64,000 nt of DNA from an uncultured Candidatus Saccharibacteria bacterium (GTDB taxonomy: Bacteria; Patescibacteriota; Saccharimonadia; Saccharimonadales; Saccharimonadaceae). The DNA lies in assembly GCA_964615445.1 (NCBI GenBank), contig CAZTOK010000004.1, positions 7,436 through 71,435 of the forward strand, given 5' to 3'. Under the pieces are notes generated by a model, which saw nothing but the letters and a program-made list of their open reading frames with translations, did not search any database and was not told the origin of the DNA. Shown here one piece after another: positions 36,746-62,399 of this stretch (the stretch's first letter is position 1; every line of letters begins with the position of its first letter). The position numbers and the translations under genes are program-made.

Positions 36746-36804
36746 CTTCTAGCACCTGTATAGTAAGAAGCACCGAGAAGTTGAGGGTAAAAAGGATACA
36801 TACT

Positions 36805-38169: not shown

Positions 38170-38173
38170 GGCA

Positions 38174-38386
38174 TGTGGAAAATACGCGAATAATCTGCGA
38201 GTTGACATACGGGAACGCGTAGGACAACCGTCCACACATAGTCGAGTTGGCTTAGCAACAATTCGTGAAGCTGGGGTAAAACTCAAAGAAAGCCACCGCC
38301 TATACACATTACTCTCCACGTATTTTTCCCCACGTAAAAATAGTTTTCTACCACTGTCTGAACACTATTTTTACCCAGTTTCCACA
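38174..38386. promoter_or_regulatory. DnaA-box-like cluster in the dnaA-dnaN spacer (candidate oriC half)
   Basis: TGTGGAAAA at 38174-38182, TCCACAC at 38231-38237 and GTTTCCACA at 38378-38386, plus further CTCCACG/CCCCACG motifs. The 264-bp non-coding spacer ends in an AT-rich stretch. Confidence 0.5.
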
Positions 38387-38433
38387 GCACCTATTAACTA
38401 CTACAGCCAATTAAAAATTCAAGAAAGGTAATA

Positions 38434-39537: not shown

Positions 39538-39538
39538 C

Positions 39539-41943: not shown

Positions 41944-43176
41944 CTATTTCTTTCTATACCAGTTAAAATGACTATCAGTTGGGCTTTGCACGTCGGCCAT
42001 TGGTGCACGTTCATCTAGTGAGGCAGAAGCAATTTTCTCAGGATTTCCATTGGCAACGGTACGGCCATGTGCCGGGTCGTCGCCAAAGCCACTAATCGCT
42101 CCTACCCATACGAATGTGTGTCCTTCCTGGCCCGTGAAAGAACTTTTAATGGCCACATCGCCGGGTTGTAAGTTGGCTGGATTGATAGTGCCTCCCGTTC
42201 CTAAGTATTGCCAGTTTTCTTTTAGCCATTTTTCCTGTGCATCGGTATTGCCACCACCTTTACTCGGAAGATCACCATAATTGTAATTTGGTTCAAAGCC
42301 ACTATTAATCATAAGAAGTGATACGAAGCCACCACAGTCAATACCAGGATGTACAGAACCTCCAACGTACATGTGATTGCTTTGTGCTTGTTGAACGGCA
42401 TCTGTCCAAGCTTGCTGTGCAACAATAGTGAGTCCTCGGTACTGTGGCCAAGCGTAGGCCATAACTTTATCGTTAAGCGTTCCATTTGAACAGCCAGTGC
42501 CGGCTGATGATCCTGACGGTGCACCACTTGGTAGTGTCGCGACCGGTGCGGCGTTTTTGTATTGGTCATATAGTTTTTTTGCATTACCGCCACGGTTAGC
42601 GATAATTTGCTCAAGCGTATCATTTGAACCTTCAAAGTCACGGTGGAATACAAATGCGGCTTGAATTGGATCAGACTGTGCAAGAAGCGACTGTAGTGCT
42701 TTTGAGTGGGTCGTTTGTAGTTCTTGCCAGCTGAAACCAAGTTGCCCACCCAGATCGGTAATACCTACTTTTTGATCTTTTATAAAGTTCTCAAGCGGTA
42801 TTTGACGAGAGCTGAAGGTCCATTGGGCAATACCGAAGCCCACGCCATCTTTTGGTACATAGCTGTCGTCAACAATTCTACCGCCCTGCTCTTTTGCGGA
42901 GTTAACGCCAGATTCGGCAATAAAGTTACCAACAATACCTGCGGCTTGGGCAAGATTAAGTCCCTTCCCCATATAAAAGTTGAGGGCTTTCTCGATAGCA
43001 TCCTTTCCATTGAGCGTGGTCGAGCCACATCCACCGCTGGCATCTGGATTGTAGTAAATGATATCGTTTCCACTATAAAAATTGCGATCGAATGCACTAA
43101 CCTCTTGCACTGAAGTTGCGGCTATAAGGATGGCAACAAGAGAGAGTGGTAAGATTTTACGATACCAACGTAGCAT
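41944..43176 (-). CDS. Secreted bifunctional peptidoglycan hydrolase: phage-tail-lysozyme-like domain plus NlpC/P60- or CHAP-like cysteine peptidase
   Basis: Signal/TM (ILPLSLVAILIAATSV). The lysozyme-type block is AAGIVGNFIAESGVNS...GFGIAQWTFSSR...QLGFSWQEL. The peptidase part has GIDCGGFVSLLM (Cys) and GHTFVWVG (His). Confidence 0.75.
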   Translation of the reverse strand: MLRWYRKILPLSLVAILIAATSVQEVSAFDRNFYSGNDIIYYNPDASGGCGSTTLNGKDAIEKALNFYMGKGLNLAQAAGIVGNFIAESGVNSAKEQGGRIVDDSYVPKDGVGFGIAQWTFSSRQIPLENFIKDQKVGITDLGGQLGFSWQELQTTHSKALQSLLAQSDPIQAAFVFHRDFEGSNDTLEQIIANRGGNAKKLYDQYKNAAPVATLPSGAPSGSSAGTGCSNGTLNDKVMAYAWPQYRGLTIVAQQAWTDAVQQAQSNHMYVGGSVHPGIDCGGFVSLLMINSGFEPNYNYGDLPSKGGGNTDAQEKWLKENWQYLGTGGTINPANLQPGDVAIKSSFTGQEGHTFVWVGAISGFGDDPAHGRTVANGNPEKIASASLDERAPMADVQSPTDSHFNWYRKK

Positions 43177-45728: not shown

Positions 45729-47645
45729 TTATACCCCTAATCCGTTAGGATTTGGAGGTGTGCTCTGCGGATAAACACTGCTAGCATCGTATCCCTGTGT
45801 GGGTTGTTGTACTTGTGGTTGAGGCGCTGCTTGGGTATCGCCTGGGTTTGTTGTAATAAGACGTGTTTCGGTGTCGCTCCCAACAATTTGAATATGTACA
45901 TGATTTTGTCCTGCAAAGAAAAGCCCCTGCCCTACCGGGAAGTTAGCGAGACGTTTTCGCTCCTCTTCTGTTAGTTTAAAGACATCGGAAAGTACATCAA
46001 CAGCGCTAGCCGACTGTTTAAGGAGAAGCTGCATAGATGAGTTGGCTACGATGGCGCGGCCCATTTTGCTGCCCATAAAGTCTTCAACATCCTGTGTAAT
46101 AGTAGTAAGACCCAGGTAATATTTACGAGCGCGTTTTGCAAGACTAAAGAGGAAGTTAGCAGAATCGTCATACTTCATTAATTGCCAAGCCTCATCCACA
46201 ATAAGCATGCGTTTTCGCTGGTCGGTACGTGTAATGTTCCAAATGTGACTAAGCACGATATACATGGCAACTGGCCGAAGCTCATCCTCAAGGTCGCGAA
46301 TATTAAAGACGACCATGTGGTTATTAATGTCAATATTTGACTGCTGACTAAAAATACCTGCAAATGTACCACTAGTATATTTGCGAAGGCGCTGGGCCAA
46401 ACTTGGGCCAGTGCCACCCATATGGAGGAGTGTGTCGTATAGGTCGGCGATAGTTGGAGGTGTTGAGTTGTGCGTTAATGGATCGCTGGTAATTCCCGCT
46501 CGCGCATAGGTGTCAATCAAGCCTTGGTCAAGGTCGGCCTCTTCCGCCGGCGTGAGCGCAGACATCATTTGACCTGCTGCTGTTGTTTGGCTTCCACCAA
46601 GCATTAAGCGTAACAATCCGTGAAGTGTCACCAAGTTGGCTCGTAAGGCGTCGTCTGCCTCGTCGCTATCGATAACACGAGGTAAGTCAAAAGGATTAAC
46701 ACGTGTGTCGGCGTTAAGGCTAAGACGAATATAACTTCCGCCTACGGCGTCGCACAATTTTTGATACTCATTCTCAGGGTCAATAATAAGTACATCCGAA
46801 CCTACCATCATACTTCGTAGTGCCTCAAGCTTCACAGTAAATGACTTACCAGCACCAGATTTTGCGAAGACGACCATATTGGCATTTTCCAGGCTAAAAC
46901 GGTCAAAAATAACCAAGCCGTTATTATGCATATTTATGCCATAAAGCACGCCTTTTTCCTGCGTAAGGTCAGCACTTGTAAATGGAAAGCTGGTACTGAT
47001 GGCACCCGTATTCATATTACGGCGAATTTGGAGTTGGTCGGTCATTTGTGGAAGTGTGCTGTTGAGCCCTTGTTCCTGTTGGCTACTGGCTACCTTGCTA
47101 AAGATAAGCTGTTGGCCAAAAAGTGTCTCGATTTTATGTTGGACAAAGCTCAATTCATCCATACTGTCAGCGTATAGGGTTACATAAAGGCCAAAGCGAA
47201 AGAAACGTTCTGAGCCAACTTGAAGTTGATCTCGCAGTTCCTCGGCATCTTGCAAGGATGCCTCAAGTCCAGGGTCGCGCGTACGACCCTTCTCGCTATT
47301 AATCGACATCGTTGCTTCGAGCTGTGTCACCTTTTTGCGAAGATTGTTTAACACCACCTGGCTCTCAACCGGATAAACAAATATACTAATATCGAGCACC
47401 TCATCGATATTTATAAGAGAACTTAGCCAGCCGGTATAAATTTGGCGTGGATAGCCATAAATATATAATGTTCTGCCATATTTAGTGCCAAGGCGAAAGT
47501 GGCTCGAGTGGATTTCGAGACTGCTTGGCGCGATCAAGTCGCGTAGCGTGGTCATGCCCGTTAAAAAGGCTTGTTCAACCTCGGCTTGTTCGCGAGCTCG
47601 CTGCTGTGCGGCAATATCAATGGGATCTAACTTTTTCTTGGCCAT
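45729..47645 (-). CDS. virB4: VirB4/TrsE/PrgJ-like T4SS ATPase
   Basis: Walker A VVFAKSGAGKSFT and Walker B RMLIVDEAWQLM. The N-domain pattern is YGRTLYIYGYPRQIYTGWLSSL...LDISIFVYP, with the later block YYLGLTTITQDVEDF. Confidence 0.9.
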   Translation of the reverse strand: MAKKKLDPIDIAAQQRAREQAEVEQAFLTGMTTLRDLIAPSSLEIHSSHFRLGTKYGRTLYIYGYPRQIYTGWLSSLINIDEVLDISIFVYPVESQVVLNNLRKKVTQLEATMSINSEKGRTRDPGLEASLQDAEELRDQLQVGSERFFRFGLYVTLYADSMDELSFVQHKIETLFGQQLIFSKVASSQQEQGLNSTLPQMTDQLQIRRNMNTGAISTSFPFTSADLTQEKGVLYGINMHNNGLVIFDRFSLENANMVVFAKSGAGKSFTVKLEALRSMMVGSDVLIIDPENEYQKLCDAVGGSYIRLSLNADTRVNPFDLPRVIDSDEADDALRANLVTLHGLLRLMLGGSQTTAAGQMMSALTPAEEADLDQGLIDTYARAGITSDPLTHNSTPPTIADLYDTLLHMGGTGPSLAQRLRKYTSGTFAGIFSQQSNIDINNHMVVFNIRDLEDELRPVAMYIVLSHIWNITRTDQRKRMLIVDEAWQLMKYDDSANFLFSLAKRARKYYLGLTTITQDVEDFMGSKMGRAIVANSSMQLLLKQSASAVDVLSDVFKLTEEERKRLANFPVGQGLFFAGQNHVHIQIVGSDTETRLITTNPGDTQAAPQPQVQQPTQGYDASSVYPQSTPPNPNGLGV

Positions 47646-48512: not shown

Positions 48513-49478
48513 TTATCGAAGCGAAATCACAACTTCATCTTCCGGAAGAGTCTCCTCTTTTTGATGAATGCGGTTTGCTTCGTGAGCAATTGTCTCGATG
48601 GATAAATCAGGATTATTTGCAAGATTTATTATATCAGGAGAGACAGGTTTCTCGCTAGTGTCTGGCGTCGTATTAGGCGTTGGAGGCGGAGTATATTGTT
48701 GTTGCACTGGTGCGGCGGCTTGCTCCTCTAGGGGCTGAATAACTGTTTGATGGATTGCGTTTGGATAAGGGTTAAAAGTAACGTGCGGGTCAGGAGTAGT
48801 TGGCTGTGAAGTTGGGACTGGTGCAGTAAGTGATGCATAGGGGTCGGGCACGGCAAGAGGCGCTGGAGTGAGTTGCATAGGAGTAGCGGGTGTCTGGCGC
48901 ATACGCGTCATCATCTCTTCGCGACGCCTCGCATCCGCCTGGTCGATCATAGAATTAAACGACTGTGCGACGCCACTATTCGTATCGAGCACGTCCTCTG
49001 TTTGCTGTGCCTCGTAGTAAGCATCGCTTTGCATGGCACTATTTGGTTGCGCGACACCACGGACTGCCCATCCTCCTGTGTCAACAATGTCTGCAAGATA
49101 TGATAATCGCTGTTGCGCTTCCGTTTCAGAGAGGTTTTTAGAGCGTTGCACCTCTATTATTTTTGGCGCAGTAATTTCAATCAACGATTGAATACCATCG
49201 GGATGCCATAGGCGTTTACGCGGTTTTAAATAAAATGACACCACAGCAGCAAGATAAATCTCCATAGGCTGGTCTTTACGGAGTGGCAACGCTAACGCAC
49301 CAAAAAAGACGATGATTGGAATGGGAATAACCGCGAGCGGTAGAAAAAGCTGGCTTAAGCCCCACCCAAGTGCAATGCCAATAATGGCAATGATGAGATA
49401 GATAAACTGTCTAAAACTAAACGGCCCGATAAGCTTATCGTCCGCTTCAACGTCTTGAGGAACTTTGTAAACTGCCAT
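48513..49478 (-). CDS. PrgI-family (VirB3-like) membrane protein with a long P/T/Q-rich C-terminal tail
   Basis: MAVYKVPQDVEADDKLIGPFSFRQFIYLIIAIIGIALGWGL followed by a second TM matches the PrgI-family N-terminal signature. The last ~150 aa are low-complexity. Confidence 0.7.
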   Translation of the reverse strand: MAVYKVPQDVEADDKLIGPFSFRQFIYLIIAIIGIALGWGLSQLFLPLAVIPIPIIVFFGALALPLRKDQPMEIYLAAVVSFYLKPRKRLWHPDGIQSLIEITAPKIIEVQRSKNLSETEAQQRLSYLADIVDTGGWAVRGVAQPNSAMQSDAYYEAQQTEDVLDTNSGVAQSFNSMIDQADARRREEMMTRMRQTPATPMQLTPAPLAVPDPYASLTAPVPTSQPTTPDPHVTFNPYPNAIHQTVIQPLEEQAAAPVQQQYTPPPTPNTTPDTSEKPVSPDIINLANNPDLSIETIAHEANRIHQKEETLPEDEVVISLR

Positions 49479-49514: not shown

Positions 49515-52385
49515 CTAAAGTGCAATTCTATCAATGATCGCTTTTCCGGCTGGATCAAGCTTGCGGTAAAGTTGCGCGTCTCCTTGGACCTTTCGTGCTT
49601 GAGCTTTAGTAATACCCCCAGCCCTTTCTGCTTCTGCAAGTGAATGAGTTTTTTGTTGAACAAGGTCTTCGTCAGACATAGTCCAGGTAGTTGCGTTTCC
49701 TGAAACCGCAGCCATACTTGTACCGGCAGCTGTAGTGGCATGTTTAGTGAGGTCGGCAGCCGTATTCTTAATAGCCGCATGGTTTGTAAGCATATTCCTC
49801 TTAAGATCTGTCATAGTATCACTAGCCATGTCTGCTGCACTTGTACGATTCATTGCATCGCGGTACTCTTTCGTACCAGCACTTCCACTTGTTAGTAACA
49901 TATTTTGCATTGCTCTGGCGGTAATGCTATCTCCGTCTCTAATTGCGTCAGATAATCGGCGTCCCATGTCTGCTGTATCACCCGGAGCAATGTTAGCCGT
50001 TAACTGAACGTCTCGTATGGCGTCGGCTATTGCTTTTTCTTGTTGTGCAGCTAAAGCTTTTTGCACTTCGGGGTCCGAGGCGGCCCTTCCCATGCCCTGA
50101 CTAATTAATCCTGGATTGTTAGCGATTGAGTTAACCAGCTGATTGTTAAGTGCGCTATTAACAGCATTGGCCTGCGCTTGATTTTGGGCGTTTTGCTGAA
50201 CATACTGGTTTGCTTTTCTGTCTGTCACACCAAACTGTGCCTGACTCGACTTCACTGCACTCGAAGCCGCTTGATCGCGCAACTCTCGGCGATAACTACG
50301 TTTAAATTGGCCTCCTCCAAACGTAGGTCTTCCCGCTAACGCGTTAGCCGAACGTGTATTTTGTCGATATTCACGGTATTTGCCTGCACGTTTTCGCATA
50401 GCGTCGACAGGTCCACGATTTGGATTATTAACATAGGCTCCTACCTTGCCAAGCACACCTTTAGTGGTATTGATAATAGTTGGGACAAGAACAAGGGGTA
50501 TAACAGAGGCGCCGGCACCAATCACCTGAACAGCTGTATTATCACTGGATGCCATAATAATTTTTGATGCTAATGCTGAAGCGCCAAAAATCAATCCCAC
50601 AGTAGGATACACAAGCAAGAGTGTCTCAAAAAGTTCACGCCATCGTTTAAAGAGGGACTCGGTATTTGGAAGAAGATATGCGACAAATGCTAGTGGCGAA
50701 ATAACGACCAAAAGGATAATAAGTGCTTGTCGGATCGTTAAAACAATAAAGACGGTCACAATAGTAACAAGAACAGTTATGAGCGTGGGTATAAGCGCGG
50801 AAAGTCCAACGTATAATGCTGCTATTCCCAATGCTCCCACAACAAGCAGTTTGCCGGCGAGACCAACGAATCCATCTCCGGTTGCACCAACGGCATTTAC
50901 ATTAAAGATCTTCACGTTGCCCATAGCGTTTTGAAGCACTTGATCAATGGAGGCGCCAAGAATGTTCGATAAGTCTACGCAGATTGAACATATCCAATAG
51001 GAAAGGTTAACCAGGATAGCCCCCAAGATAAGCCTTGGTAACATTTTTTTAATGCCATAATTGGTAACGCCAATGCTTGTCACCTGCGAAAATATAATAA
51101 TAAGGAAGGCGATAACGAAGGCGACGTTTGCAATATTACGAGCAACCGACCATACATTGTACATACTTCCGCCCGTATCGGTGGTAGTTAATGGCTGAAC
51201 CTTAAGTAGGTCTGATACGAGCCCGTATGCCGAGTCGGTAATATGAGCCATAAAAGTAACAATTGGGCATATAATCCACCCAAGGCCTGGGATGGAGCAA
51301 GTGGTGACATCTTTTGTATTATCAGTAGTTGACTGCGGTGGACTAGACGAACTCATGTCACCAGTGGCAATAGTTGCTCCGTATTTACAAGCGTTATACT
51401 CAGGATTGTTAGGATCATTACGGTTGCTAGCATCTTTATACGTTACAGAACAATAATTCGGGTCATCTTTATGCTTATATCCATTATCGCAAGCGGTTTG
51501 CTCGGCAACAGTAGCGTGAGCATACTTATCAAGACATGTTCCTGGTTCGCCGTAACCGGGTCGGATAGCGTCTGCGTACGCCTGAGCGTAAGAGTTCGCC
51601 TTGTTGGTAAGATCTAGACAAGTTGGATTTTCATATTCACTCGGACTACCGCCAGTTGCATCTGTTGAAATCTGGCGGTCATGGTCGAGTTGTCCATGGT
51701 AAATATATGGGGTTGGAGTATAGTTTTCTATCTGGTCGAGCGTATAACCAAGAGAGTTATTAGCCTCTAGCTTTTGCGAGCTTGAAGCATCACTTAGTTT
51801 AACAACTGACGTTGCCTGACAGCCGATGATAAATGTCTGACTATAGAGGTAGTAGCGCTCAGCATCATTTAGTAGCGGTTCACTGTGATTTTTTAGTAGC
51901 GCACCCTTCATATTTGCTTCCATGGCGCTGCCACCTATGTTACCGCCGTTAGCCGAACCAGCTTGAAGGTGTCCATCGCCTGGACACGCTCCGCCGTCGG
52001 TGGTTGTCCATTTAGCAGCACAAAGTAAATCAAATGGGTCGCTATAACCAAAGTTACTGGCAACGCCACTTACCCAGTTACTATCCTGACAACTTACCTG
52101 ACCGTCGCTTGAAGAGATAATATGGCCAACATGAACCTGATCACCTCCAAAAATATCCCATCGTTTAATATTGTCTGAGCTAAGCTGATAGCTCGGTGTA
52201 GTAGCACATGAAAGAAATGCATGATAATTAAGGTAGATCTTAACGTTGCTTGCTATCTGGTCTTGCGTTTCGGCATGAGCCTCCTGAGAGGCTGGCCCTA
52301 CAAGTCCAATCAAGGTCGACAAGACAACGACAGCAAGGAGGATGTAGCTTTTAGTGTGTTTCTTTAGTGTGTTAAACATTAACAT
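49515..52385 (-). CDS. Giant VirB6/TrbL-like polytopic protein: Cys-rich ectodomain, ~7 TM core and a ~320-aa hydrophilic tail (paralogue A)
   Basis: Signal/TM (YILLAVVVLSTLIGLV) and about 20 Cys in the first 370 aa. The TM core shares long identical runs with 53493-56156 (GLGWIICP, KKMLPRL, VISPLAFVAYLLPNTE). The VirB6 assignment rests on architecture and context. Confidence 0.6.
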   Translation of the reverse strand: MLMFNTLKKHTKSYILLAVVVLSTLIGLVGPASQEAHAETQDQIASNVKIYLNYHAFLSCATTPSYQLSSDNIKRWDIFGGDQVHVGHIISSSDGQVSCQDSNWVSGVASNFGYSDPFDLLCAAKWTTTDGGACPGDGHLQAGSANGGNIGGSAMEANMKGALLKNHSEPLLNDAERYYLYSQTFIIGCQATSVVKLSDASSSQKLEANNSLGYTLDQIENYTPTPYIYHGQLDHDRQISTDATGGSPSEYENPTCLDLTNKANSYAQAYADAIRPGYGEPGTCLDKYAHATVAEQTACDNGYKHKDDPNYCSVTYKDASNRNDPNNPEYNACKYGATIATGDMSSSSPPQSTTDNTKDVTTCSIPGLGWIICPIVTFMAHITDSAYGLVSDLLKVQPLTTTDTGGSMYNVWSVARNIANVAFVIAFLIIIFSQVTSIGVTNYGIKKMLPRLILGAILVNLSYWICSICVDLSNILGASIDQVLQNAMGNVKIFNVNAVGATGDGFVGLAGKLLVVGALGIAALYVGLSALIPTLITVLVTIVTVFIVLTIRQALIILLVVISPLAFVAYLLPNTESLFKRWRELFETLLLVYPTVGLIFGASALASKIIMASSDNTAVQVIGAGASVIPLVLVPTIINTTKGVLGKVGAYVNNPNRGPVDAMRKRAGKYREYRQNTRSANALAGRPTFGGGQFKRSYRRELRDQAASSAVKSSQAQFGVTDRKANQYVQQNAQNQAQANAVNSALNNQLVNSIANNPGLISQGMGRAASDPEVQKALAAQQEKAIADAIRDVQLTANIAPGDTADMGRRLSDAIRDGDSITARAMQNMLLTSGSAGTKEYRDAMNRTSAADMASDTMTDLKRNMLTNHAAIKNTAADLTKHATTAAGTSMAAVSGNATTWTMSDEDLVQQKTHSLAEAERAGGITKAQARKVQGDAQLYRKLDPAGKAIIDRIAL

Positions 52386-52438: not shown

Positions 52439-53362
52439 TTAACTATCTATTTTTGTAGCTTGCCAGCCAGTAAGGTCGTATTTATTGGCATTGTTTGGCT
52501 TTTGGATACCATAAGTTACCTTTAATTGAGTAAGTGTTCCGGGTAGTTGCTCACCGTCTTTATTAACGAAAGCATGTGTGATAGTAGCGGTATCTACAAG
52601 CCCATCGCTAAGTTCGCCAAGATGTGCGATACCAGGTTGAAGTACTTCGTAAACGCTTTTAGTTTGGTGTGTTATATTATACTGACGATTCTGACGAGCT
52701 ACTGCCAAAATTTCAGGCTGCTTTCCTTCAGCGGAAATTGCCTGTGAAAATGCCGCTTCGAACGCATCCTCGGCAGCCTGATTACGCACAGGCTTATTAA
52801 AAGCTATCGCACCATTTGCAGGATCTTCATATGCTTGAATGCTATCGAGAACTAAATGAGTAAAGCCATCTTTGTAGTCAGGTTTGTCATGAGCGGTTAC
52901 CTCGAACATTTTTGCGCAACTATCAATACCGTTGCATTCGGCAGCGCCAATCTGCATCTCAACCGTTTGCGGGTTAATCTGTATGTTTGGATTCGTTTGC
53001 ATCGTCTCGGTGGTTGAAGTGGCGGTCGTAGTGGTAGGTGCCGCTTCAGCGGAGCTAGTGGCTACGGGACCAGAAGCGCCAGAACTTTCCGACTGACTCA
53101 GACCAATAGCGGTACCAAGTCCGCTTGCAAGTAGGATGCCACCGATCGCAATAGCTATCCTTGTTCTAAGTTTCTTCTTAGCTTCTCTCTCTTTAGTTGT
53201 GGTAGTTGGTGTTTCTAAAGGAAGTTGTGCGTACCCACCTTCTCTAGGGGGAACTTCTTGTTTGGGAATTTGAAAGGCGGTTTCGTTACTTTCGGAGCCG
53301 GGCACAATACCCTCCCCCGTACGCTGTACGTCTTGTCTTCCTGGGTAGGTGTCGTGACTCAT
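52439..53362 (-). CDS. Bitopic membrane protein (VirB8/TcpC-like topology) between the two VirB6-like genes
   Basis: Cytoplasmic N-terminus, a TM (IAIAIGGILLASGLGTAIGL), a T/S/A-rich linker and a ~190-aa ectodomain. No motif recognised. Confidence 0.5.
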   Translation of the reverse strand: MSHDTYPGRQDVQRTGEGIVPGSESNETAFQIPKQEVPPREGGYAQLPLETPTTTTKEREAKKKLRTRIAIAIGGILLASGLGTAIGLSQSESSGASGPVATSSAEAAPTTTTATSTTETMQTNPNIQINPQTVEMQIGAAECNGIDSCAKMFEVTAHDKPDYKDGFTHLVLDSIQAYEDPANGAIAFNKPVRNQAAEDAFEAAFSQAISAEGKQPEILAVARQNRQYNITHQTKSVYEVLQPGIAHLGELSDGLVDTATITHAFVNKDGEQLPGTLTQLKVTYGIQKPNNANKYDLTGWQATKIDS

Positions 53363-53492: not shown

Positions 53493-56156
53493 CTATGGTT
53501 TGAGAAATTTCGCTTGTTCGGGCGTTGCTTGCCGCGTTTGTACTCGACCGCTCCTGCGAAGAGCATACTCAATGGTTTGAATCTCTTCTATACGATCACC
53601 AATTGTAGCGCGAATCTGATCGTTAGTGAGGGCCTCGAACACGTTATTGTATGCCTTGTTAAGGTCGTTTGTACTACCAACGGCGGTAATACTATTAATC
53701 TGGTTAGCCACCTCTTTAACCCAGCCAGCTTTAAGATCTTTCATGTTGCTTGCAGCTGTATCACCAAGTGAACCGGCGCGTGCCATGTTCATGTTTGTTA
53801 GGCTCACGCCCGCAAGCTTTGGATCCGCCTGAAGATGAAACCCACCTTTTACCTTCATAGTTGAGGCGTTACGGGCAATAACACGTGAAAGCATATCTTG
53901 ATCTATATGTACATCGTCCATACGTGCTTTTTCAAGAGCCACTACCTGGCCTTCTCGAGCCTGCATCTCAAGGGCAGCTTCGATTTCACTGCTATTGTAG
54001 TTCGTTGCACCTTTTATAACGTCGCTCACGACAGTACCAGAGAAGTCTTTCGGTGTTTGATTATTCTGCAGGGCACGATAGGTAATGAGTTTGACACCAG
54101 CATCAAGAGCGGCATCACTTTCTTTACTAAGCTCACTCACGGCGTGGGCCTGAGCCTTCACGGCACCAGATGGATCAATACCACCTGCTCGGCGACTAAG
54201 ATTTTGGTTAGTGTTAAGCGCCGTAGCAATTTGTTGCGTCTGAATAGTGCGAGCCGCGGCACCACGTTGCGTTTCAACACTTGTTTCAAGAGCATTATTC
54301 ATAATATCTTGCGCCATAACGTTGCGGCTATGAGCAAAGTTAGCAAGCGCACTTACAGATAGATTGTCGGGAACGACCATATTGCGAGAATCGCCCGCTC
54401 GAAATTCATCCCAGTTGGCATCAACCTGCGCCTTAGCAAGATCAACATTGAGCTTGCTTGCACGGGCGTTAAGCTCAAGTCCCTGAATGCGTGCATTAGT
54501 ATGTTTTTGCGCTTCAAAGCGCGCCTCAGCGGCTGTTTCACCACCCTGCTTCAAAAGCGCTGCCTCGAGTGCACGTTCATGAATATTGTGCGCACGATGA
54601 TCGTTTGCCCATTTCGCATCAACCATAGCCTCGTTCGCCTTCTGCCACCCTTCGCGCGCACGACGCTTGGCATCAATTCGTGCCGAGGTACGGTTTAAGA
54701 AATCGCGGCGGCGCATGCCAGGGTCAGCCAGTACACGGGCTTTTCTTTGTGCTGCGCGCTCTTCGGCAAACTTTCGTGTACGATCCACCAAGCCTTTGCT
54801 TGGGTTGTTGGCAAGGCCAGCAATGCGACCAAGCAGCGAACCGCTTAATCGGAGCAATAAAGGAGTAATGGCAAGCGGTGCAACCTGTACCGCCATACCT
54901 AAAATGATCAAGTTGATAGAGTCGGCATTCTGGATAATTGCAATTCCCGCTAGCTGAGACCCACCAAACACAAAAGCAAATATTGGGAACATAATAAGCA
55001 TCGTCGAAAAGAGCTCATGCCATTTTTTAAAATACTTTTCGGTATTTGGTAGTAAGAATGCAACAAAGGCGAGCGGTGACACAATAATAAGCACTGTAAT
55101 AATAGCTTGACGCGCAGCCAGTACAACAAGGGCAATGAAGATGGCAAGAAGGAGTCCTGCAAGAATCGGTAAGAGCAGTGTAATAGACCCTCCAACCGTC
55201 GCCGCAAGGGCACTATGAAGTGCTAGGCCACCAGCCAACGCAGCCGTTCCGCCTGAGAGAATAAACCCTGCTATGCTTTTAAAACTAATAACCGACCACT
55301 GATTACCACCATTTCCAATGACAGTATCATGAATCGACATAAATAAATGTTCAATCGAATATCCTAAGACGTTGGAGGCATCCACTGCAATCGCACACAC
55401 CCAATACGACACGTTGACGAGTATGGCGGCAACAATCAGCCGAGGAAGCATCTTTTTAACGTTGTAGTTAGAAAGACCAACGCTTGTGAGTTGTGAGTAA
55501 ATAACAACAATAAATCCAATAACAAATACCACGTTTGCGAAATTACGCATGACTGACCAAATAGTAAATAGTGCATTATTCTGATCTGTTGATACCGGTC
55601 GAACAGTTAAGAAACCACTGACAATGCCAAAGATCCAGTCCATAGCGTTTGCGAGAAAATTTGTGGCTGGGCAAATTATCCAGCCTAGCCCAAACGTAAA
55701 CGAGCTGTCACAGGAGGTAGCCTGTTTAGCACCTGATTGTGGTGTGATAGTGATGGTTGTTTTATCAGTGGGGTTTGTGTATCCGTCAGGCGGTGTGTAA
55801 TCAAATACGACATATCCTGCAGAAGTTGCCTTGGAGGTGTCCACTCCGGCTGCAAAGTAAATGATGTGCATTTTCTCCGGGCCGCCATTTGCTGCCGGCT
55901 CTATAAAGGTGTACAGCTGCGTACCCTGGTTTAATCCTCGGCTATCATTCGTACCAGCGGTTCCGTTTTGTTGGTACTGATTGTTAAGATATGAAATATT
56001 ACTTCCATCCCATGCGGCTGTAGCTTCGTCAGCTCGAGTAGTAGGACTGCTGGCGAGTATAAATGCTAAACAAGCTGCAATCGTTGCAGCAGCAAAAAGA
56101 AAAAGATTCCGTACGGATAGTCTACCGAACGGGCGAGCTACTCGCAGATCCCACAT
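53493..56156 (-). CDS. Giant VirB6/TrbL-like polytopic protein (paralogue B)
   Basis: Same architecture as 49515-52385. Shared blocks are FGLGWIICPATNF, NYNVKKMLPRLIVAAILVNVSYWVCAIAVDASNVLG and RQAIITVLIIVSPLAFVAFLLPNTEKYFKKWHELF. Confidence 0.6.
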   Translation of the reverse strand: MWDLRVARPFGRLSVRNLFLFAAATIAACLAFILASSPTTRADEATAAWDGSNISYLNNQYQQNGTAGTNDSRGLNQGTQLYTFIEPAANGGPEKMHIIYFAAGVDTSKATSAGYVVFDYTPPDGYTNPTDKTTITITPQSGAKQATSCDSSFTFGLGWIICPATNFLANAMDWIFGIVSGFLTVRPVSTDQNNALFTIWSVMRNFANVVFVIGFIVVIYSQLTSVGLSNYNVKKMLPRLIVAAILVNVSYWVCAIAVDASNVLGYSIEHLFMSIHDTVIGNGGNQWSVISFKSIAGFILSGGTAALAGGLALHSALAATVGGSITLLLPILAGLLLAIFIALVVLAARQAIITVLIIVSPLAFVAFLLPNTEKYFKKWHELFSTMLIMFPIFAFVFGGSQLAGIAIIQNADSINLIILGMAVQVAPLAITPLLLRLSGSLLGRIAGLANNPSKGLVDRTRKFAEERAAQRKARVLADPGMRRRDFLNRTSARIDAKRRAREGWQKANEAMVDAKWANDHRAHNIHERALEAALLKQGGETAAEARFEAQKHTNARIQGLELNARASKLNVDLAKAQVDANWDEFRAGDSRNMVVPDNLSVSALANFAHSRNVMAQDIMNNALETSVETQRGAAARTIQTQQIATALNTNQNLSRRAGGIDPSGAVKAQAHAVSELSKESDAALDAGVKLITYRALQNNQTPKDFSGTVVSDVIKGATNYNSSEIEAALEMQAREGQVVALEKARMDDVHIDQDMLSRVIARNASTMKVKGGFHLQADPKLAGVSLTNMNMARAGSLGDTAASNMKDLKAGWVKEVANQINSITAVGSTNDLNKAYNNVFEALTNDQIRATIGDRIEEIQTIEYALRRSGRVQTRQATPEQAKFLKP

Positions 56157-56293
56157 ATCCCTGTTATGGTATCACTTTATAGGTTAAAAGTCAATCTTAT
56201 TGCCTCATTTTACGTCCATCCTACGCATGTGATTTTTCGCTCTGCAAGAAACCCTTGCAAGGTATCTTTTTTTATCGTATTTTATAGATAGGT

Positions 56294-56677
56294 ATGAAGG
56301 TAAAACAAAAAATAGCAACACTCATAATACTAGCCGTGTCGTTCTGTGCGGTTGTAACGCCTGCGGCCTTAGCAGATTGTGGTGGCGTAAAAACGGCCAT
56401 TCTCCAATGTGATCAGACTGGCAAAGGTACAAGCGCCAAGGATAGTGGCATATGGGGCATTTTGCTTATTGGCCTTAACATCCTTACTGGTGGCATTGGC
56501 ATCGCGGCTGTCGGCGGTATCGTTTATGGGGCTATTCTCTATACGAGCGCCGGCGATAGGGCCGACCAAGTAAAGAAGGCTGTCTCCGTTATTACCAATG
56601 TGGTTATAGGTCTTGCTGCATACGGGCTCATGTATATATTGCTTAACTTCCTTATTCCAGGCGGAATATTTAGCTAA
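56294..56677 (+). CDS. VirB2/TrbC-like T4SS pilin paralogue 1
   Basis: Signal peptide, a Cys pair (ADCGGVKTAILQC), then two TM helices around the loop YTSAGDRADQVKKA. Confidence 0.7.
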   Translation: MKVKQKIATLIILAVSFCAVVTPAALADCGGVKTAILQCDQTGKGTSAKDSGIWGILLIGLNILTGGIGIAAVGGIVYGAILYTSAGDRADQVKKAVSVITNVVIGLAAYGLMYILLNFLIPGGIFS

Positions 56678-56692
56678 AGGAGCTCAATAAAG

Positions 56693-57118
56693 ATGAAACG
56701 ACTACTACAAAACTGGATTGCGGCAATTCTCTTCGTTCTCACATTCGGTGGCGCGTTTGGTGTGGTTGCTTTGCCACAGACTACCTTTGCTGCTTGTAAC
56801 GACCACCTTTTAACATTCCCTGCCTGGTATAGAGGATTAACTGACGGCGATTGTAATATTAAAAGTCCTACAGATTCAGGTGGACTACCTAAGTTTGTAT
56901 GGACCATCGCACTCAACTTTATTGAAATTATGTTGCAACTTGTCGGCTATATTTCAGTAGCCTTTATCATTGTGGGTGGATTTACGTATATGACCAGCGC
57001 TGGGTCACCTGACGGCGCGGCTCGCTCGCGTAAGACGATCACGAATGCAGTTATAGGGCTGGTTATATCTATTTTCTCGGTCGGTATTGTGAACGTTGTC
57101 ACAGGAGCGCTGAAATGA
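56693..57118 (+). CDS. VirB2/TrbC-like T4SS pilin paralogue 2
   Basis: Signal peptide ending TFA/AC, a Cys pair (AACNDH...DGDCNIK), and a TM-loop-TM core GGFTYMTSAGSPDGAARSRKTITNAVIGLVISIF. Confidence 0.7.
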   Translation: MKRLLQNWIAAILFVLTFGGAFGVVALPQTTFAACNDHLLTFPAWYRGLTDGDCNIKSPTDSGGLPKFVWTIALNFIEIMLQLVGYISVAFIIVGGFTYMTSAGSPDGAARSRKTITNAVIGLVISIFSVGIVNVVTGALK

Positions 57119-57414
57119 GCGTGTTACGATTTTTAGCGGCTAGTTCCGATAAAATTGATCCCGGATCTATCGGGTTACAAAGTCCTCCAACGGATGCTAA
57201 CTCGGTGCTCGCGAACGTACTTACCACCGTATACGCTTGGGCTGGCATTATTTGTATTATTATTGTGATTGTTGGAGGTTATCTTTATGTTACTTCAGCA
57301 TCAAATGCATCACAGGTAAAGCGCGCTAAAGATGCTATCATTGGGGCTATCATCGGCCTCGTTGTTATTATGATGGCATTTGTTATTACGCAATTTGTTT
57401 TAGGGAGGTTTTAG
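57115..57414 (+). CDS. VirB2/TrbC-like T4SS pilin paralogue 3 (short, no obvious signal peptide)
   Basis: Core GGYLYVTSASNASQVKRAKDAIIGAIIGLVVIMMAF. ATGA overlap with paralogue 2. Confidence 0.65.
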   Translation: MSVLRFLAASSDKIDPGSIGLQSPPTDANSVLANVLTTVYAWAGIICIIIVIVGGYLYVTSASNASQVKRAKDAIIGAIIGLVVIMMAFVITQFVLGRF

Positions 57415-57789
57415 ATGAAAAAGTGGAAATCGGTTGTTATTATGATTGGCTGTCTTTTTGGCGTAACTGTCGCTATGGTTCCGACTTCTAGCACGTATGC
57501 AATTAACGTATTTAATCAATGTTCGGGGAACGCAGATTCTGCGGTTTGTAAGGCATCGGGAACCGATAATGCAACAAGTATGATTAAAATTGTTGTTAAT
57601 ACCCTACTCTTTATCCTAGGTATTATTTCAGTCATTATGATTATCATTGGCGGCCTTCGATATACTACCTCCGGAGGCGATAGTAGCGCTACCAAGGCTG
57701 CGAAGGATACAATTCTCTATGCGGTTATTGGACTCGTGGTGGCAATGCTTTCATTTACTATTGTTAATTATGTAATAGCACAATTTTAA
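57415..57789 (+). CDS. VirB2/TrbC-like T4SS pilin paralogue 4
   Basis: Signal peptide, a Cys pair (NQCSGNADSAVC), and the core GGLRYTTSGGDSSATKAAKDTILYAVIGLVVAMLSFTIVNYVI. Confidence 0.75.
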   Translation: MKKWKSVVIMIGCLFGVTVAMVPTSSTYAINVFNQCSGNADSAVCKASGTDNATSMIKIVVNTLLFILGIISVIMIIIGGLRYTTSGGDSSATKAAKDTILYAVIGLVVAMLSFTIVNYVIAQF

Positions 57790-57802
57790 GGAGAACAAAA
57801 AA

Positions 57803-58165
57803 ATGAAAAAACTCAAACTGCTGTTTATATCCGTGTTTGCCCTTATGGGAGTAGCAACGATGGTCCCTATGTATGCCTATGCGTCACCCGGTGATCAGAT
57901 TCAAAAAGGTGTCAATTCGGTGAGTGACGGGAGTAAAACCGATATAGCCGTGAGTTTCAAAACGATTGTCAACGTTATCTTGTTTGTCCTCGGTGCCATC
58001 TCGGTCATCATGATCGTTATTGGAGGTGTTCGCTACACCGTCTCTGGGGGTGACAGCGGAAGTACAAAAGGGGCTAAGGATACTATTCTCTATGCAGTTG
58101 TTGGTCTTGTAGTAGCAATGCTTGCGTATGCTATTGTCAACTTTGTCATAACCAGCTTTAAGTAA
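57803..58165 (+). CDS. VirB2/TrbC-like T4SS pilin paralogue 5
   Basis: Signal peptide (AYA/SP) and the core GGVRYTVSGGDSGSTKGAKDTILYAVVGLVVAMLAYAIVNFVI. Confidence 0.75.
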   Translation: MKKLKLLFISVFALMGVATMVPMYAYASPGDQIQKGVNSVSDGSKTDIAVSFKTIVNVILFVLGAISVIMIVIGGVRYTVSGGDSGSTKGAKDTILYAVVGLVVAMLAYAIVNFVITSFK

Positions 58166-58236
58166 AAAGTATTAACAAAAAGTAACGCTTCTGCTATAAA
58201 GTAGATAGAGTAAATCCTACAGGAAAGGAAAAATAA

Positions 58237-58674
58237 ATGAAAAATAATATTAAGAAAAGTCTACAGGCGCTCCTTCTTGTCCCTGTTATTGCACTTGGAG
58301 TAAGCGGGGTTGCTAGTTTTGTAAGCACGCCTGCAGCACAAGCTCAGGCAGCAGCATGTACAAACGGTGCGAGCGGTGGTTTAGCTGGCGGTGCAGGTTG
58401 TGCTAAAGGTAATGACCAGCAGACCGATCTCTTTGGTCAAAACGGTATCTTCAAGACTATTACGAACGTGCTCCTCTTCATCATTGGTGCCATATCAGTA
58501 ATCATGCTTATCATTGGTGGTATTCGCTATGTGGTTTCCGGTGGTGATAGTGGTGCTGTAACAAGTGCAAAGAACACCATTCTTTATGCTGTGGTTGGTG
58601 TAGTTATCTCAATCCTCGCCTACGCACTCGTTAACTTCGTTATCGGCAGCTTTGCTTCAACAAGTGGTAGCTAG
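58237..58674 (+). CDS. VirB2/TrbC-like T4SS pilin paralogue 6
   Basis: Signal peptide (AQA/QA), a Cys pair (AACTNGASGGLAGGAGC), and the core GGIRYVVSGGDSGAVTSAKNTILYAVVGVVISILAYALVNFVI. Confidence 0.75.
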   Translation: MKNNIKKSLQALLLVPVIALGVSGVASFVSTPAAQAQAAACTNGASGGLAGGAGCAKGNDQQTDLFGQNGIFKTITNVLLFIIGAISVIMLIIGGIRYVVSGGDSGAVTSAKNTILYAVVGVVISILAYALVNFVIGSFASTSGS

Positions 58675-58691
58675 TCTTACGATAGCGTAAT

Positions 58692-58724
58692 AAAAATAAC
58701 ATTCTTAGGGAATGTTATTTTTTT
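58692..58724 (+). terminator. Rho-independent terminator of the pilin operon
   Basis: 13-bp stem aaaaataacattc / gaatgttattttt with a 5-nt loop, running into a T-tract. Confidence 0.6.
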
Positions 58725-58735
58725 GCCTTAAAACT

Positions 58736-58787: not shown

Positions 58788-59264
58788 TTATTGAATCGTA
58801 ATCTTCTTAGCTTGTTCTTGCTTAATTTTACTAAAGCTAATAGTAAGAACACCATCTTTAAGAACTGCTTCAACCTCGTCTTCTTTTACGGGTACCGGTA
58901 GTGCTAAGGTGCGACTAAATTCACCCCAATAACATTCCTGTATGTGCCAATTGGTTGCATTGGTTTCATCCCCACTTGAAAGCGTACCGCTAATAGTAAG
59001 AATGCCATCGCTTATGCTAACATCAAGGTCTTCTTTATTAACGCCCGCGGTACGAGCCTTAATGATAAGCTTCTCGTCGGTTTCATATGCATCGACGGCT
59101 AGTTGACCAGGAAAGTCATCCTCTGAATCTTGCCATGCGGCACTGTCGTCAGTTGGTGCTTGTGCTGGCGTAGCGTTCCCCTGTTGGCTTAGCTCGTCAT
59201 CATTTAAAAATGCGGCTGCGAGTTCATCTTCGATCAAGAGATCATCGTTTTGTTTACGGGCCAT
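58788..59264 (-). CDS. Hsp20/alpha-crystallin family small heat-shock protein
   Basis: Alpha-crystallin domain QLAVDAYETDEKLIIKARTAGVNKEDLDVSISDGILTISG...FSRTLALPVPVKEDEVEAVLKDGVLTISFSK. I chose ATG 59264, preceded by GGAGGA; the ORF-track GTG start is at 59276. Confidence 0.9.
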   Translation of the reverse strand: MARKQNDDLLIEDELAAAFLNDDELSQQGNATPAQAPTDDSAAWQDSEDDFPGQLAVDAYETDEKLIIKARTAGVNKEDLDVSISDGILTISGTLSSGDETNATNWHIQECYWGEFSRTLALPVPVKEDEVEAVLKDGVLTISFSKIKQEQAKKITIQ

Positions 59265-59311
59265 GATATCCTCCACTTTTCTCTAGGCTCTATTGACAAA
59301 TAGTCCCTCAC

Positions 59312-60056: not shown

Positions 60057-60467
60057 CTAAACGTTGGTACCCGTACCACTTACGCCTGGGGCAAAACTAG
60101 CAATGACGAAATTAACCACCGCATATGCCAACATGGCTATAACTAAACCGACAACTGCATAAAGAATGGTGTTTTTAGCACCAGTTATATTTCCCGAATT
60201 GCCACCTGATATAACATAGCGAAGTCCGCCAACGACTACCATAATGACGCTAATAGCCCCTACGATAAAAAGCATGACGTTGCTTACCGTCGTAAAAACT
60301 CCGCTGGCTCCAAAGAGTGTAACGGCCTGATCGACACCACGAGCTGAGCTTGCGCCGTCGCTCATTGTAAGATCAAACGCGAAAGTAGCTCGAGATAAAA
60401 AAGTATTCAGCAGTACGGTGACTGCCGTGACAAGTATTCCAAAAAAAGAAAATCGTTTTATCCTCAT
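60057..60467 (-). CDS. VirB2/TrbC-like T4SS pilin paralogue 7 (isolated copy between two tRNA-Ser genes)
   Basis: Signal peptide and the core GGLRYVISGGNSGNITGAKNTILYAVVGLVIAMLAYAVVNFVIASF, nearly identical to paralogues 4-6. Confidence 0.75.
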   Translation of the reverse strand: MRIKRFSFFGILVTAVTVLLNTFLSRATFAFDLTMSDGASSARGVDQAVTLFGASGVFTTVSNVMLFIVGAISVIMVVVGGLRYVISGGNSGNITGAKNTILYAVVGLVIAMLAYAVVNFVIASFAPGVSGTGTNV

Positions 60468-60724: not shown

Positions 60725-61291
60725 CTACACAAGAAGGAGAATAATAGCGGGTACAACTAGTATGCCCAGTAATGTCAAACCAGCCAACTTGGTAATATAG
60801 CCAATGATGTTTTCAGCCTGACTCATCGAACGCGCAACCAAAACGTATCCAGCATGATTACCGTAAGGCACAATGACCGCGGCATCCCTTATCTTATCGT
60901 GTTGCCATGTGAACCAGTTGTTGCTACGATTTTGCGAATCAGGAAAAGCGCTAGTTGGGGGCAATGGCACTCGGTCGCCGATTTTACCCGAGGAAGCAAG
61001 AACACGAGTGTTGTTATCGACAATAGTCACAAAAGGAGCAAGACTCTGCGACTCATCAACTAACGCCGTAGTAGGTACAACTGAACTAGCAGATGCGCCT
61101 TGACTGAGTTTGCTGGCTATATCTTGAGCCATTTGTAACTGCGGGTCATTCATGCCTATGCGAAGAGATTGCTGCAGACCTACATAACCAAAGAGGAGCA
61201 AACCACAACCAATCGTTACTACTAAGAGCCAAAGACGAAGAGATTGTCGTGTTATTTTTTTGACTTCAATCATATGTATATAATAACTCAC
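60725..61291 (-). CDS. Membrane protein with N- and C-terminal TM helices, unknown function
   Basis: TMs at LWLLVVTIGCGLLLFGYVGL and LAGLTLLGILVVPAIILLLV flank a ~120-aa exposed domain. Confidence 0.5.
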   Translation of the reverse strand: MSYYIHMIEVKKITRQSLRLWLLVVTIGCGLLLFGYVGLQQSLRIGMNDPQLQMAQDIASKLSQGASASSVVPTTALVDESQSLAPFVTIVDNNTRVLASSGKIGDRVPLPPTSAFPDSQNRSNNWFTWQHDKIRDAAVIVPYGNHAGYVLVARSMSQAENIIGYITKLAGLTLLGILVVPAIILLLV

Positions 61292-61448: not shown

Positions 61449-62399
61449 ATGTCAGGCGAACGACTTACGACACCGGAAAGGAAAGTTGCTACAACAATAG
61501 CAAGAAGGCTTGGCACGGTTGGTTTGACAAGTAGCGGTGTCGAAAAACCAGACCCAACTCAAGACCAACTATTGATAGATCTTGGGAGAGATCACGCCGC
61601 AAATCCAAAAGATACGCTGGCTGTTGCCCGAGAGTATCTGATGGTTATTGGTTCGAACGAAAACCTCTCTCCTCAGGAAAAAGAGAAACTGCTCGATACG
61701 CAGCTGGATGTCGTTTTTGACCTTACAATCAAACTGGATCATTTGGCATTCCCACCTACTAAACCGGGCGAAGTTCGGAAGGGTGTCCCCGACTATATCC
61801 CTGACGGCTTTGTTGATATGGGTAAAGATGAAAATGTTGATCCGGCGAATCGGGAACGTGAACAGATACTGGTAGATAAACGTGATATTCTTACGAAATA
61901 CAAACCGTTCCTAAAAGATTTGTTGAGTCGAGACTATAGCCGAATTGACTTACAGACAAAAAAACGCCATCTGGCAATTGAAACAGCAAAAGAGATATAT
62001 AGTTCACTTGAATTCAATGCTGCTGCGAGCGATATGGGCGGAGATGTTGTACGACTTAGTAAAGTTCCGGAAGGAGTGTGTCGTCACCAAGGAATGACAT
62101 TTCAAGTTCTATGCCAAACGTTAGGCCTAAAATCACGCGTTCTCAAGTCCTATCGGGACGGTGAGCGCCATTCAGCTAATATGGTTCGCTTTAACGATCA
62201 GTGGTATATTTTTGATGTCACTAACCCTGATTACCAGCTTGATGATTCCGGTCAAAAAAGATGGCGTCCCGGTGCATTTGCAGTCGACGAACCACCTATG
62301 TCGGGTGAAATGAAAAAATACAGCGTAAGAGGTAAGTTTAGTGGTGAAGACCATACCTACCTTGCTCACGACAATATGTATTGGCGAATTGAATCATAG
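61449..62399 (+). CDS. Transglutaminase-like cysteine-protease-fold protein
   Basis: A C/H/D triad in the spacing typical of transglutaminase cores: EGVCRHQGMTFQVLCQTLGL ... GERHSANMVRFNDQWYIFDVTNP. No signal peptide seen. Confidence 0.5.
   Translation: MSGERLTTPERKVATTIARRLGTVGLTSSGVEKPDPTQDQLLIDLGRDHAANPKDTLAVAREYLMVIGSNENLSPQEKEKLLDTQLDVVFDLTIKLDHLAFPPTKPGEVRKGVPDYIPDGFVDMGKDENVDPANREREQILVDKRDILTKYKPFLKDLLSRDYSRIDLQTKKRHLAIETAKEIYSSLEFNAAASDMGGDVVRLSKVPEGVCRHQGMTFQVLCQTLGLKSRVLKSYRDGERHSANMVRFNDQWYIFDVTNPDYQLDDSGQKRWRPGAFAVDEPPMSGEMKKYSVRGKFSGEDHTYLAHDNMYWRIES

Follow-up and report, generated by a model that had tools for sequence, protein, structure and literature searches.

The window analysed here is a 64,000-nucleotide (nt) stretch of DNA from an uncultured Candidatus Saccharibacteria bacterium (contig CAZTOK010000004.1). 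It carries six tandem open reading frames (ORFs) on the + strand (positions 56294-58674) and one dispersed ORF on the - strand (60057-60467), all of which encode two-helix membrane-hairpin proteins of 99-145 amino acids (aa). We named the tandem ORFs c1-c6 in their order and the dispersed ORF c7. Together they are likely to represent the VirB2-like pilin array of a chromosomal, origin-proximal, monoderm-type type IV secretion system (T4SS) that is conserved across the Saccharimonadia, with copies that are ancient, fixed paralogues and not diversifying ones. In our analysis, this reading is based on homology, the anatomy of the operon, orthology by position, purifying selection and the pattern of Cys pairing. 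The essentiality of the six tandem genes, known only for Southlakia epibionticum, is taken from the literature. The array had been noticed before in an original prediction made from the DNA letters; its coordinates and ORF lengths were correct, and the core and N-terminal peptides quoted in it are letter-for-letter translations of the window.

To place the seven proteins in a family, they were compared with profile hidden Markov models (HMMs). The Pfam model PF18895 (T4SS_pilin, gathering score 26.6 bits) matched all seven, and six of them scored above the gathering score (30.3-43.6 bits). Only c1, with 16.1 bits, remained below it. However, the profile of the c1 orthologues aligned with that of the c6 orthologues in hhalign (probability 85 %, E 6e-6, 98 columns), which ties c1 to the PF18895 family despite its sub-cut-off score. 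The c3 profile aligned with the c6 profile even better (probability 97.9 %, E 6e-13). Pairwise identity between the window paralogues was 20-54 %. When 64 family members were scanned, 63 matched PF18895 and 38 matched the TrbC model PF04956 (gathering score 27.9 bits) at E<0.01, the best at 1.1e-7. At the level of sequence comparison, these cross-matches point to superfamily-level relatedness with TrbC/VirB2 and not to curated membership. With c5 as the query, 4357 homologues were retrieved, nearly all of them from PF18895, and those with a name were Candidatus Saccharimonadales. One NCBI protein was 100 % identical to c5, and the closest retrievable relative (86 % identical) came from a root metagenome. 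The original prediction had described the seven proteins as VirB2-like pilins of a T4SS and had proposed an HMM comparison that could instead reveal generic holin-like proteins. This comparison favoured T4SS pilins, as the cut-off of PF18895 was passed by six copies; the TrbC matches and the VirB6-like, PrgI and VirB4-like neighbours described below likewise uphold the assignment to VirB2/TrbC-superfamily pilin-like proteins attached to a T4SS.

Of the seven copies, c3 alone passed the cut-off (40 bits) of the NCBIfam model NF045849, which describes the Mbov_0395 pilin-like conjugal transfer protein of Mollicutes integrative and conjugative elements (ICEs). It scored 43.7 bits, whereas c2, c4, c5 and c6 scored 21-35 bits, under the cut-off, and c1 and c7 did not match. 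The absence of a signal peptide from this copy, remarked on in the original prediction, was confirmed. No longer N-terminus of c3 is possible, because its ORF starts at the first start codon past the upstream stop. In 59 of 67 arrays, the third gene likewise encoded a leaderless protein with no more than two hydrophobic segments. By hydropathy, most members of c1, c2 and c4-c7 had three hydrophobic segments (the signal peptide and two more), and c3 had two. In the AlphaFold2 model of c5 (predicted local distance difference test, pLDDT, 80.8), the signal-peptide helix and a short helix were followed by hairpin helices at residues 48-80 and 85-118 (pLDDT >90). The loops between the two helices are net positive (RY..SGGDS...K.AK). 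By inspection and the positive-inside rule, both termini are thus predicted to lie outside, as they do in VirB2. PrgF of the plasmid pCF10 showed no detectable homology in hhalign to either the c3 profile or the 64-sequence profile (probability 2.4 % and 5.7 %, respectively). The C-termini of c3 (..AFVITQFVLGRF) and pCF10 PrgF (L086 11546-11773; ..AYVITQVGAIRF) are nevertheless alike over 14 residues (ITQ...RF). This resemblance is not significant and may reflect chance or a common assembly motif.

Next, the array was compared with five related contigs (L001-L005), in which the identity of c5 to the window copy ranged from 86 % to 57 %. The window and these contigs are referred to below as the six genomes. 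All five contigs had the same layout, with a VirB6-like gene, six pilin genes (~130/140/99/123/121/140 aa), an Hsp20 gene, a few further genes and a seventh pilin gene on the opposite strand. All 35 pilin proteins of the relatives best matched the window copy at the same position, with an orthologue identity of 48-94 %, while their next-best matches to other window copies reached 26-54 %. The mature N-termini aligned cleanly between orthologues, and c1-c5 and c7 each had their own motif (Table 1; the full motif of c2 reads AACNDHLLTFPAWYRGLxDGDCNI). Mean pairwise identity across the six genomes was 45-72 % for the mature N-termini and 66-86 % for the cores. Between the window and L001, the proportion of nonsynonymous differences (pN) was 0.016-0.185 in the N-termini and 0-0.07 in the cores, and the proportion of synonymous differences (pS) was 0.43-0.91 (0.54-0.91 in the N-termini), which is saturated. 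We give pN and pS because the saturation of synonymous sites, even against the closest relative, left the ratio of substitution rates (dN/dS) not computable for many segments. The core of c6 was the most conserved, with 86 % identity across the six genomes and no amino-acid change against L001. The N-termini are thus faster than the cores in some copies, yet all are under purifying selection.

These results modify the earlier view of the array. The N-termini had been called hypervariable, and they are indeed unrelated between paralogues; between orthologues of the six genomes, however, they are conserved, with pN far below the saturated pS. The suggested diversification against host surface variation is not borne out, as the orthologue N-termini are conserved and the gene order is fixed across the class. 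Neither of the comparisons that had been proposed as a check showed it: N-termini and cores alike were under purifying selection, and the related genomes had the same layout with conserved, copy-specific N-termini.

For a wider survey, a genome scan with the 887-aa VirB6-like protein encoded next to the array found no relative. A later scan of species-representative genomes with the pilin alignment succeeded and gave 80 further loci, nearly all labelled Saccharibacteria or Saccharimonadia. Their ORFs were classed with seven copy-specific HMMs. The order 1-2-3-4-5-6 was kept in 40 of the 62 loci that hold the 5' end of the array. Both c1 and c2 were always single, and extra or missing genes occurred only within the c4-c7 subfamily.

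Cysteines beyond residue 20 were counted for each copy. Two Cys were present in 60 of 66 c2 orthologues and in 60 of 75 c4 orthologues, and two or four Cys in 53 of 63 further c1 orthologues. The Cys pair of c6 is lineage-specific (present in 53 of 93 orthologues, with no Cys in 38), and c5 and c7 orthologues mostly had no Cys. Among the Cys-bearing c1, c2, c4, c5 and c6 proteins, 249 of 268 had an even number of cysteines. The Cys pairs initially noticed in c1, c2, c4 and c6 are therefore real, and the disulfide-bonded extracellular loops proposed for them are supported by these even numbers, since the cysteines come in conserved pairs; the bonds themselves are a prediction. In the window, the predicted disulfides are C29-C39 in c1, C35-C54 in c2 and C36-C45 in c4.

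The tandem genes are closely packed, with spacings from c1 to c5 of 15, -4 (an ATGA overlap), 0 and 13 nt. A Shine-Dalgarno sequence precedes each of c2-c6, and c1 has only a weak AGG. The promoter-like block before c1 lies in the divergent intergenic region that is common to the array and the VirB6-like gene, and the last ~25 nt before the c1 start were nearly identical in all six aligned genomes. At the promoter-like site before c6, both hexamers and the downstream GTAGAGTAA block were conserved in six of six genomes. From this conservation, the sites before c1 and c6 may function as promoters. The hairpin and T-run after c6 is probably the terminator of the pilin operon. A scan for consensus signals was less informative than cross-genome conservation, as its promoter matches were no more numerous than in shuffled sequence, and it missed the post-c6 terminator because the stem is A+T-rich. 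The only Rfam matches were the two tRNAs.

From the start of the array, the distance is 138 nt to the VirB6-like gene and ~8.6 kb to the VirB4-like gene. The 887-aa protein is considered VirB6-like because its positional orthologues in L003-L005 match PF19590 (TrbL_3). Its counterpart in Southlakia epibionticum, SEML1_0013, was annotated as TrbL/VirB6-like by structure (PMC10633639). From the VirB6-like gene, the order on the - strand is 307 aa, 956 aa, PrgI (VirB3-like), 278 aa, VirB4-like, 846 aa and the hydrolase, with recF-dnaN-dnaA beyond it on the + strand. The L001 orthologue of the 278-aa protein, encoded between the PrgI and VirB4-like genes, is TraC-like. In an NCBIfam scan that covered the 846-aa and 956-aa proteins, neither had a match. 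The S. epibionticum counterparts of the 846-, 956- and 307-aa proteins were annotated by structure only, and the annotations include a second VirB6-like and an NTF2/VirB8-like protein (PMC10633639). A relaxase was not recognised among the scanned T4SS-cluster genes of the window. Linkage of the array to the VirB6, VirB3 and VirB4 genes was strict in every genome examined (L001-L005). As dnaA, dnaN and recF lie beside the cluster, the whole system, a T4SS of monoderm type, is origin-proximal.

Table 1. Coordinates of the pilin array, its putative expression signals and the neighbouring genes (positions are those of the window)
Feature	Position	Strand	Description
c1	56294-56677	+	127 aa; signal peptide (..AALA|D); Cys pair ADCGGVKTAIxxC; two-helix hairpin; C-terminal NFLIPGGIF; PF18895 16.1 bits
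c2	56693-57118	+	141 aa; signal peptide; Cys-pair segment AAC-NDHLLTFPAWYRG-x-DGDC, kept in 6/6 genomes; PF18895 30.3 bits
c3	57115-57414	+	99 aa; leaderless; motif DKIDPGSIGL; start overlaps c2 stop (ATGA); PF18895 37.4 bits, TrbC 25.2 bits
c4	57415-57789	+	124 aa; signal peptide; Cys pair NVFxQC..DSAVC; PF18895 43.6 bits
c5	57803-58165	+	120 aa; signal peptide; no Cys; motif QIQxGVNSV; PF18895 40.5 bits
c6	58237-58674	+	145 aa; most conserved copy; Cys pair in some lineages only; PF18895 35.9 bits
c7	60057-60467	-	136 aa; signal peptide; no Cys; motif FDLxMSDGASSARGVDQAxxLFG; monocistronic between two tRNA-Ser genes; PF18895 36.1 bits
Promoter-like block before c1	56255-56293	+	TTGCAA-17 nt-TATTTT, then ATAGATAGGT to ATG
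Promoter-like site before c6	58172-58200	+	TTAACA-17 nt-TATAAA, inside 71-nt c5-c6 spacer
Hairpin and T-run after c6	58684-58728	+	stem, then TTTTTTT; RNAfold -14.9 kcal/mol; probable terminator
Promoter-like site upstream of c7	60532-60504	-	TAGACC-17-TATAAT, from consensus scan
VirB6/TrbL-like protein	53493-56156	-	887 aa, multi-pass membrane protein; divergent from array; itself without Pfam match
307-aa protein	52439-53362	-	no Pfam match
956-aa protein	49515-52385	-	no Pfam match
PrgI (VirB3-like)	48513-49478	-	PF12666 50.2 bits
VirB4-like ATPase	45729-47645	-	P-loop_TraG 101 bits; AAA_10 and DUF87 also match
846-aa protein	43176-45716	-	no Pfam match
Cell-wall hydrolase, VirB1/PrgK-like	41944-43176	-	PF18013 Phage_lysozyme2 97.9 bits
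dnaA, dnaN, recF-like	36727-40582	+	immediately beside T4SS cluster
Hsp20	58788-59276	-	directly after array; PF00011 68.8 bits; same position in L001-L005

The linkage between Hsp20 and the pilin array was tight in every genome examined (the window and L001-L005). Near c7, a 316-aa protein (61449-62399, + strand) has a weak transglutaminase/peptidase-like core, and a 188-aa membrane protein without a family match (60725-61291, - strand) flanks c7. In L003, the seventh pilin gene is adjoined by serine recombinase/resolvase, DNA methylase, Replic_Relax relaxase-like and TraG-like genes (14145-20372). This block is apparently a mobile element that has integrated next to the chromosomal T4SS.

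The array is already published in the same form, and the window adds no new kind of system. McLean 2018 (bioRxiv 10.1101/258137) described an array of 4-6 small signal-peptide proteins, possibly VirB2-related, in TM7x and other Saccharibacteria, with VirB4, VirB6 and PrgI homologues alongside. Wang 2023 (PMC10633639) described a row of pilin genes in S. epibionticum as essential. Table S1 of that study lists the VirB6-like SEML1_0013 (- strand), the six + strand genes SEML1_0014-0019 (399-558 nt, all class I essential), the Hsp20 gene SEML1_0020 (also essential by transposon sequencing, Tn-seq), a tRNA-Ser and the non-essential 'pilin' SEML1_0024 (- strand). Reviews speak of 6 sequence-divergent VirB2-like pilins that are essential. 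In 383 assemblies, Quiñonero-Coronel 2025 (PMC12102498) identified 441 arrays with 2-11 pilin genes each, most commonly in Saccharimonadia. These arrays lie near virB4, have a paralogue identity of 25 % on average and 54 % at most, and lack relaxases, with proximity to the origin in some Patescibacteria. The copies were treated as variable in that study, and adaptation to different host strains was speculated. The original prediction named Anaplasmataceae as the main bacteria with multiplied VirB2 genes and thereby passed over these published Patescibacteria arrays (PMC12102498, PMC10633639, bioRxiv 10.1101/258137).

The closest published counterparts are the arrays of S. epibionticum ML1 and Nanosynbacter lyticus TM7x. 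They share with the window the order of a VirB6-like gene (-), six + strand pilin genes, Hsp20 (-), tRNA-Ser and a seventh pilin gene (-), as well as the position near dnaA, and their proteins also belong to PF18895. The sizes in S. epibionticum are 132/185/103/126/127/138 + 144 aa, compared to 127/141/99/124/120/145 + 136 aa in the window, where c2 is shorter; the orthology between these two arrays rests on layout and size. The window comes from another organism, an uncultured Saccharimonadales lineage of soil or rhizosphere type. With the arrays surveyed in PMC12102498, the window has in common the range of paralogue identity, the position near the origin and the lack of a recognised relaxase in the scanned T4SS-cluster genes. 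It differs in that its copies can be assigned to seven groups of positional orthologues, on which purifying selection acts.

Among the better-known systems, the VirB2/TrbC/TraA pilins of Gram-negative bacteria are likewise small T4SS-encoded proteins in which a signal peptide is followed by two hydrophobic helices with a short charged loop, and they are connected to the window proteins by the HMM cross-matches. In contrast, the window copies score below the TrbC cut-off, belong to a monoderm and number seven paralogues instead of one; a VirB5 tip protein was not recognised in the window, and no structural match to solved pili was obtained. The nearest likeness to c3 is provided by pCF10 PrgF and the NF045849 proteins, which are also leaderless two-helix proteins encoded beside the VirB6, VirB3 and VirB4 genes of monoderm T4SSs. 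Mutagenesis and labelling evidence indicates that Gram-positive T4SSs also use the VirB2-like PrgF, and in the published model PrgF stacks on a pentamer of a VirB6-like protein (ter Beek 2025, bioRxiv 10.64898/2025.12.18.695078). The Gram-positive plasmids apparently have one functional VirB2-like copy (same source), and the window locus has seven.

Considered together, positional orthology, purifying selection and the published essentiality speak for ancient, non-redundant subunits and against exchangeable variants. The pilin paralogues are probably a non-redundant set that co-assembles on the T4SS, and the heteropolymeric pilus suggested in the original prediction is plausible. In the mechanism that we propose, six of the seven proteins would be exported by means of a cleavable Sec signal peptide, and c3 would insert without one. 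Each protein would then form a helical hairpin in the membrane, its termini outside and its short, net-positive loop in the cytoplasm. The adjacent VirB4/VirB6-like machinery would extract the subunits and stack them into a tube or pilus-like conduit directed towards the host bacterium. In such a conduit, the lumen would be lined by the loop, and the N-termini, which are copy-specific and often disulfide-stapled, would face outwards. The copies c1-c3 always occur singly and are the most divergent from the others, and two of them have conserved Cys pairs; their probable role is that of minor, initiating or tip subunits. The shaft would probably be supplied by the c4-c7 subfamily, namely by c4-c6, with c7 dispensable. 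As c6 is the most conserved copy and has its own conserved promoter-like site, it is likely the main subunit. Filament formation, co-assembly and the division of labour are thus what we infer from the genes. A more specific version of this proposal, which we put forward tentatively and would not expect to hold in full, is an obligately heteropolymeric VirB2-type conduit in a monoderm, with the disulfide-stapled c1 and c2 and the leaderless c3 as an initiating or tip complex that replaces the missing VirB5, c4-c6 as the shaft, c6 as the main subunit expressed from its own promoter and c7 as a dispensable spare. If the leaderless c3 were ancestral, this would suggest that the pilins descend from the monoderm mating-pair formation lineage MPF-FATA and were not borrowed from diderm systems, a possibility that was left open in PMC12102498.

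Several observations weigh against the assembled, divided conduit. A filament of these proteins has not been seen. The Tn-seq essentiality of the upstream genes (PMC10633639) could partly be a polar effect on the downstream genes. Co-assembly and the split into major and minor subunits are derived solely from conservation, copy number and promoter-like motifs, and the c4-c7 calls in distant genomes are noisy because the HMMs were built from six close genomes. No window copy reached the Pfam TrbC (PF04956) cut-off, c3 being the best with 25.2 bits. A Foldseek search against the PDB gave 0 matches at E<=0.001 and returned only generic helical hairpins. A sequence-profile search of the PDB found no VirB2 or TraA, and the matches among the structure searches were non-specific helical hairpins or MacB. 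Structure cannot settle VirB2 membership, because the two-helix fold is too simple to discriminate.

The differences between the copies could alternatively mean that the pilins are exchangeable or diversifying, i.e., alternative versions of one surface subunit that match different hosts or vary the surface. This has been proposed for the VirB2 arrays of Bartonella and Anaplasma, host-dependent bacteria that likewise have several divergent VirB2 genes per genome; a role in antigenic variation or host range is ascribed to these families. The low identity of the window paralogues (20-54 %), which differ most in their exposed N-termini, is compatible with such a role, as are the ~2-8 times faster evolution of the N-termini than of the cores in c1, c4 and c5 (c6 also fits) and the extra copies of c4-c6 type in some genomes. 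The same idea was suggested in the original prediction and raised as a possibility for Patescibacteria arrays (PMC12102498). However, the fast-diverging exposed regions and fluid copy sets of the Anaplasma/Bartonella type were not found here. The N-termini are conserved between the orthologues of the six genomes with pN far below pS, and throughout the class the copies keep a fixed order and identity. In addition, all six tandem genes were scored essential in S. epibionticum, which is unexpected for interchangeable variants (PMC10633639). Exchangeable pilins are therefore quite unlikely at this locus. The only alternative that we retain as a serious one, although its probability is rather low, is that the proteins are membrane-embedded channel subunits that form the T4SS translocation channel or a short wall stub and no extended pilus. 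In Gram-negative systems, VirB2 contributes to substrate transfer independently of the pilus, and none of the papers that we found shows an imaged T4SS pilus of Saccharibacteria. In contrast, the conserved, disulfide-type extracellular N-termini suggest exposure on the outside, and PrgF of Gram-positive bacteria was modelled as a pilus-like tube on VirB6, with labelling that is consistent with extrusion from the membrane (bioRxiv 10.64898/2025.12.18.695078).

Two further readings were rejected on account of the pilin HMM matches, the two-helix hairpin and the T4SS linkage. That the small signal-peptide proteins are effectors, i.e., T4SS substrates delivered to the host, is very improbable, as every copy is a hydrophobic two-helix hairpin that matches the pilin HMM, and a two-pass membrane protein exported by Sec would be unusual for a T4SS effector. 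The idea draws on the signal peptides of six of the seven proteins, on the proximity of the genes to the T4SS and on the TM7x transcriptome paper, where the label 'six putative effector genes' was used and three of the TM7x genes were up in stable symbiosis. That the proteins are generic, holin-like small membrane proteins unrelated to T4SS pilins is hardly credible. A helical hairpin is a simple fold, the Foldseek matches are non-specific and there are weak cross-matches to other small-transmembrane Pfam families; on the other side stand the curated PF18895 cut-off passed by six copies, the TrbC cross-matches in 38 of 64 relatives, the score of c3 above the cut-off of the pilin-like NCBIfam model NF045849 and the strict VirB6/VirB3/VirB4 linkage in every genome examined.

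The T4SS of Saccharibacteria is essential for epibiotic growth, and its function was called 'completely unknown' (PMC11665869). The pilin array is the most unusual part of this system. The seven pilins are an old and fixed set of distinct subunits on which purifying selection acts, and this speaks for a multi-subunit machine rather than a variable surface. To the published description, the window and its relatives make incremental additions: the seven positional orthologue groups, the link of the leaderless c3 to a monoderm ICE family, the paired cysteines and the conserved promoter-like site before c6. The roles of c6 as main subunit and of c1-c3 as minor subunits, and the paired cysteines as disulfides, are offered as hypotheses to the groups that now have genetics at hand for these organisms.

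Some of the relatives carry labels that do not agree with their arrays. Contigs with a Saccharimonadia-type array were found in metagenome-assembled genomes labelled Verrucomicrobiia, Acidobacteriota and Parcubacteria (L006, L033 and L045), and these labels are probably binning errors. L005 (GCA_033792395.1, JARAUW010000001.1, 957,675 bp), labelled Streptomyces caniscabiei, contains a full Saccharimonadales-type T4SS with the pilin array. Its G+C content (51.6 % in the 20 kb read) is far from that of Streptomyces. The contig looks like the genome of a member of the Saccharibacteria that was present in a Streptomyces culture as an epibiont or contaminant, which would point to a cultivable host-epibiont pair.

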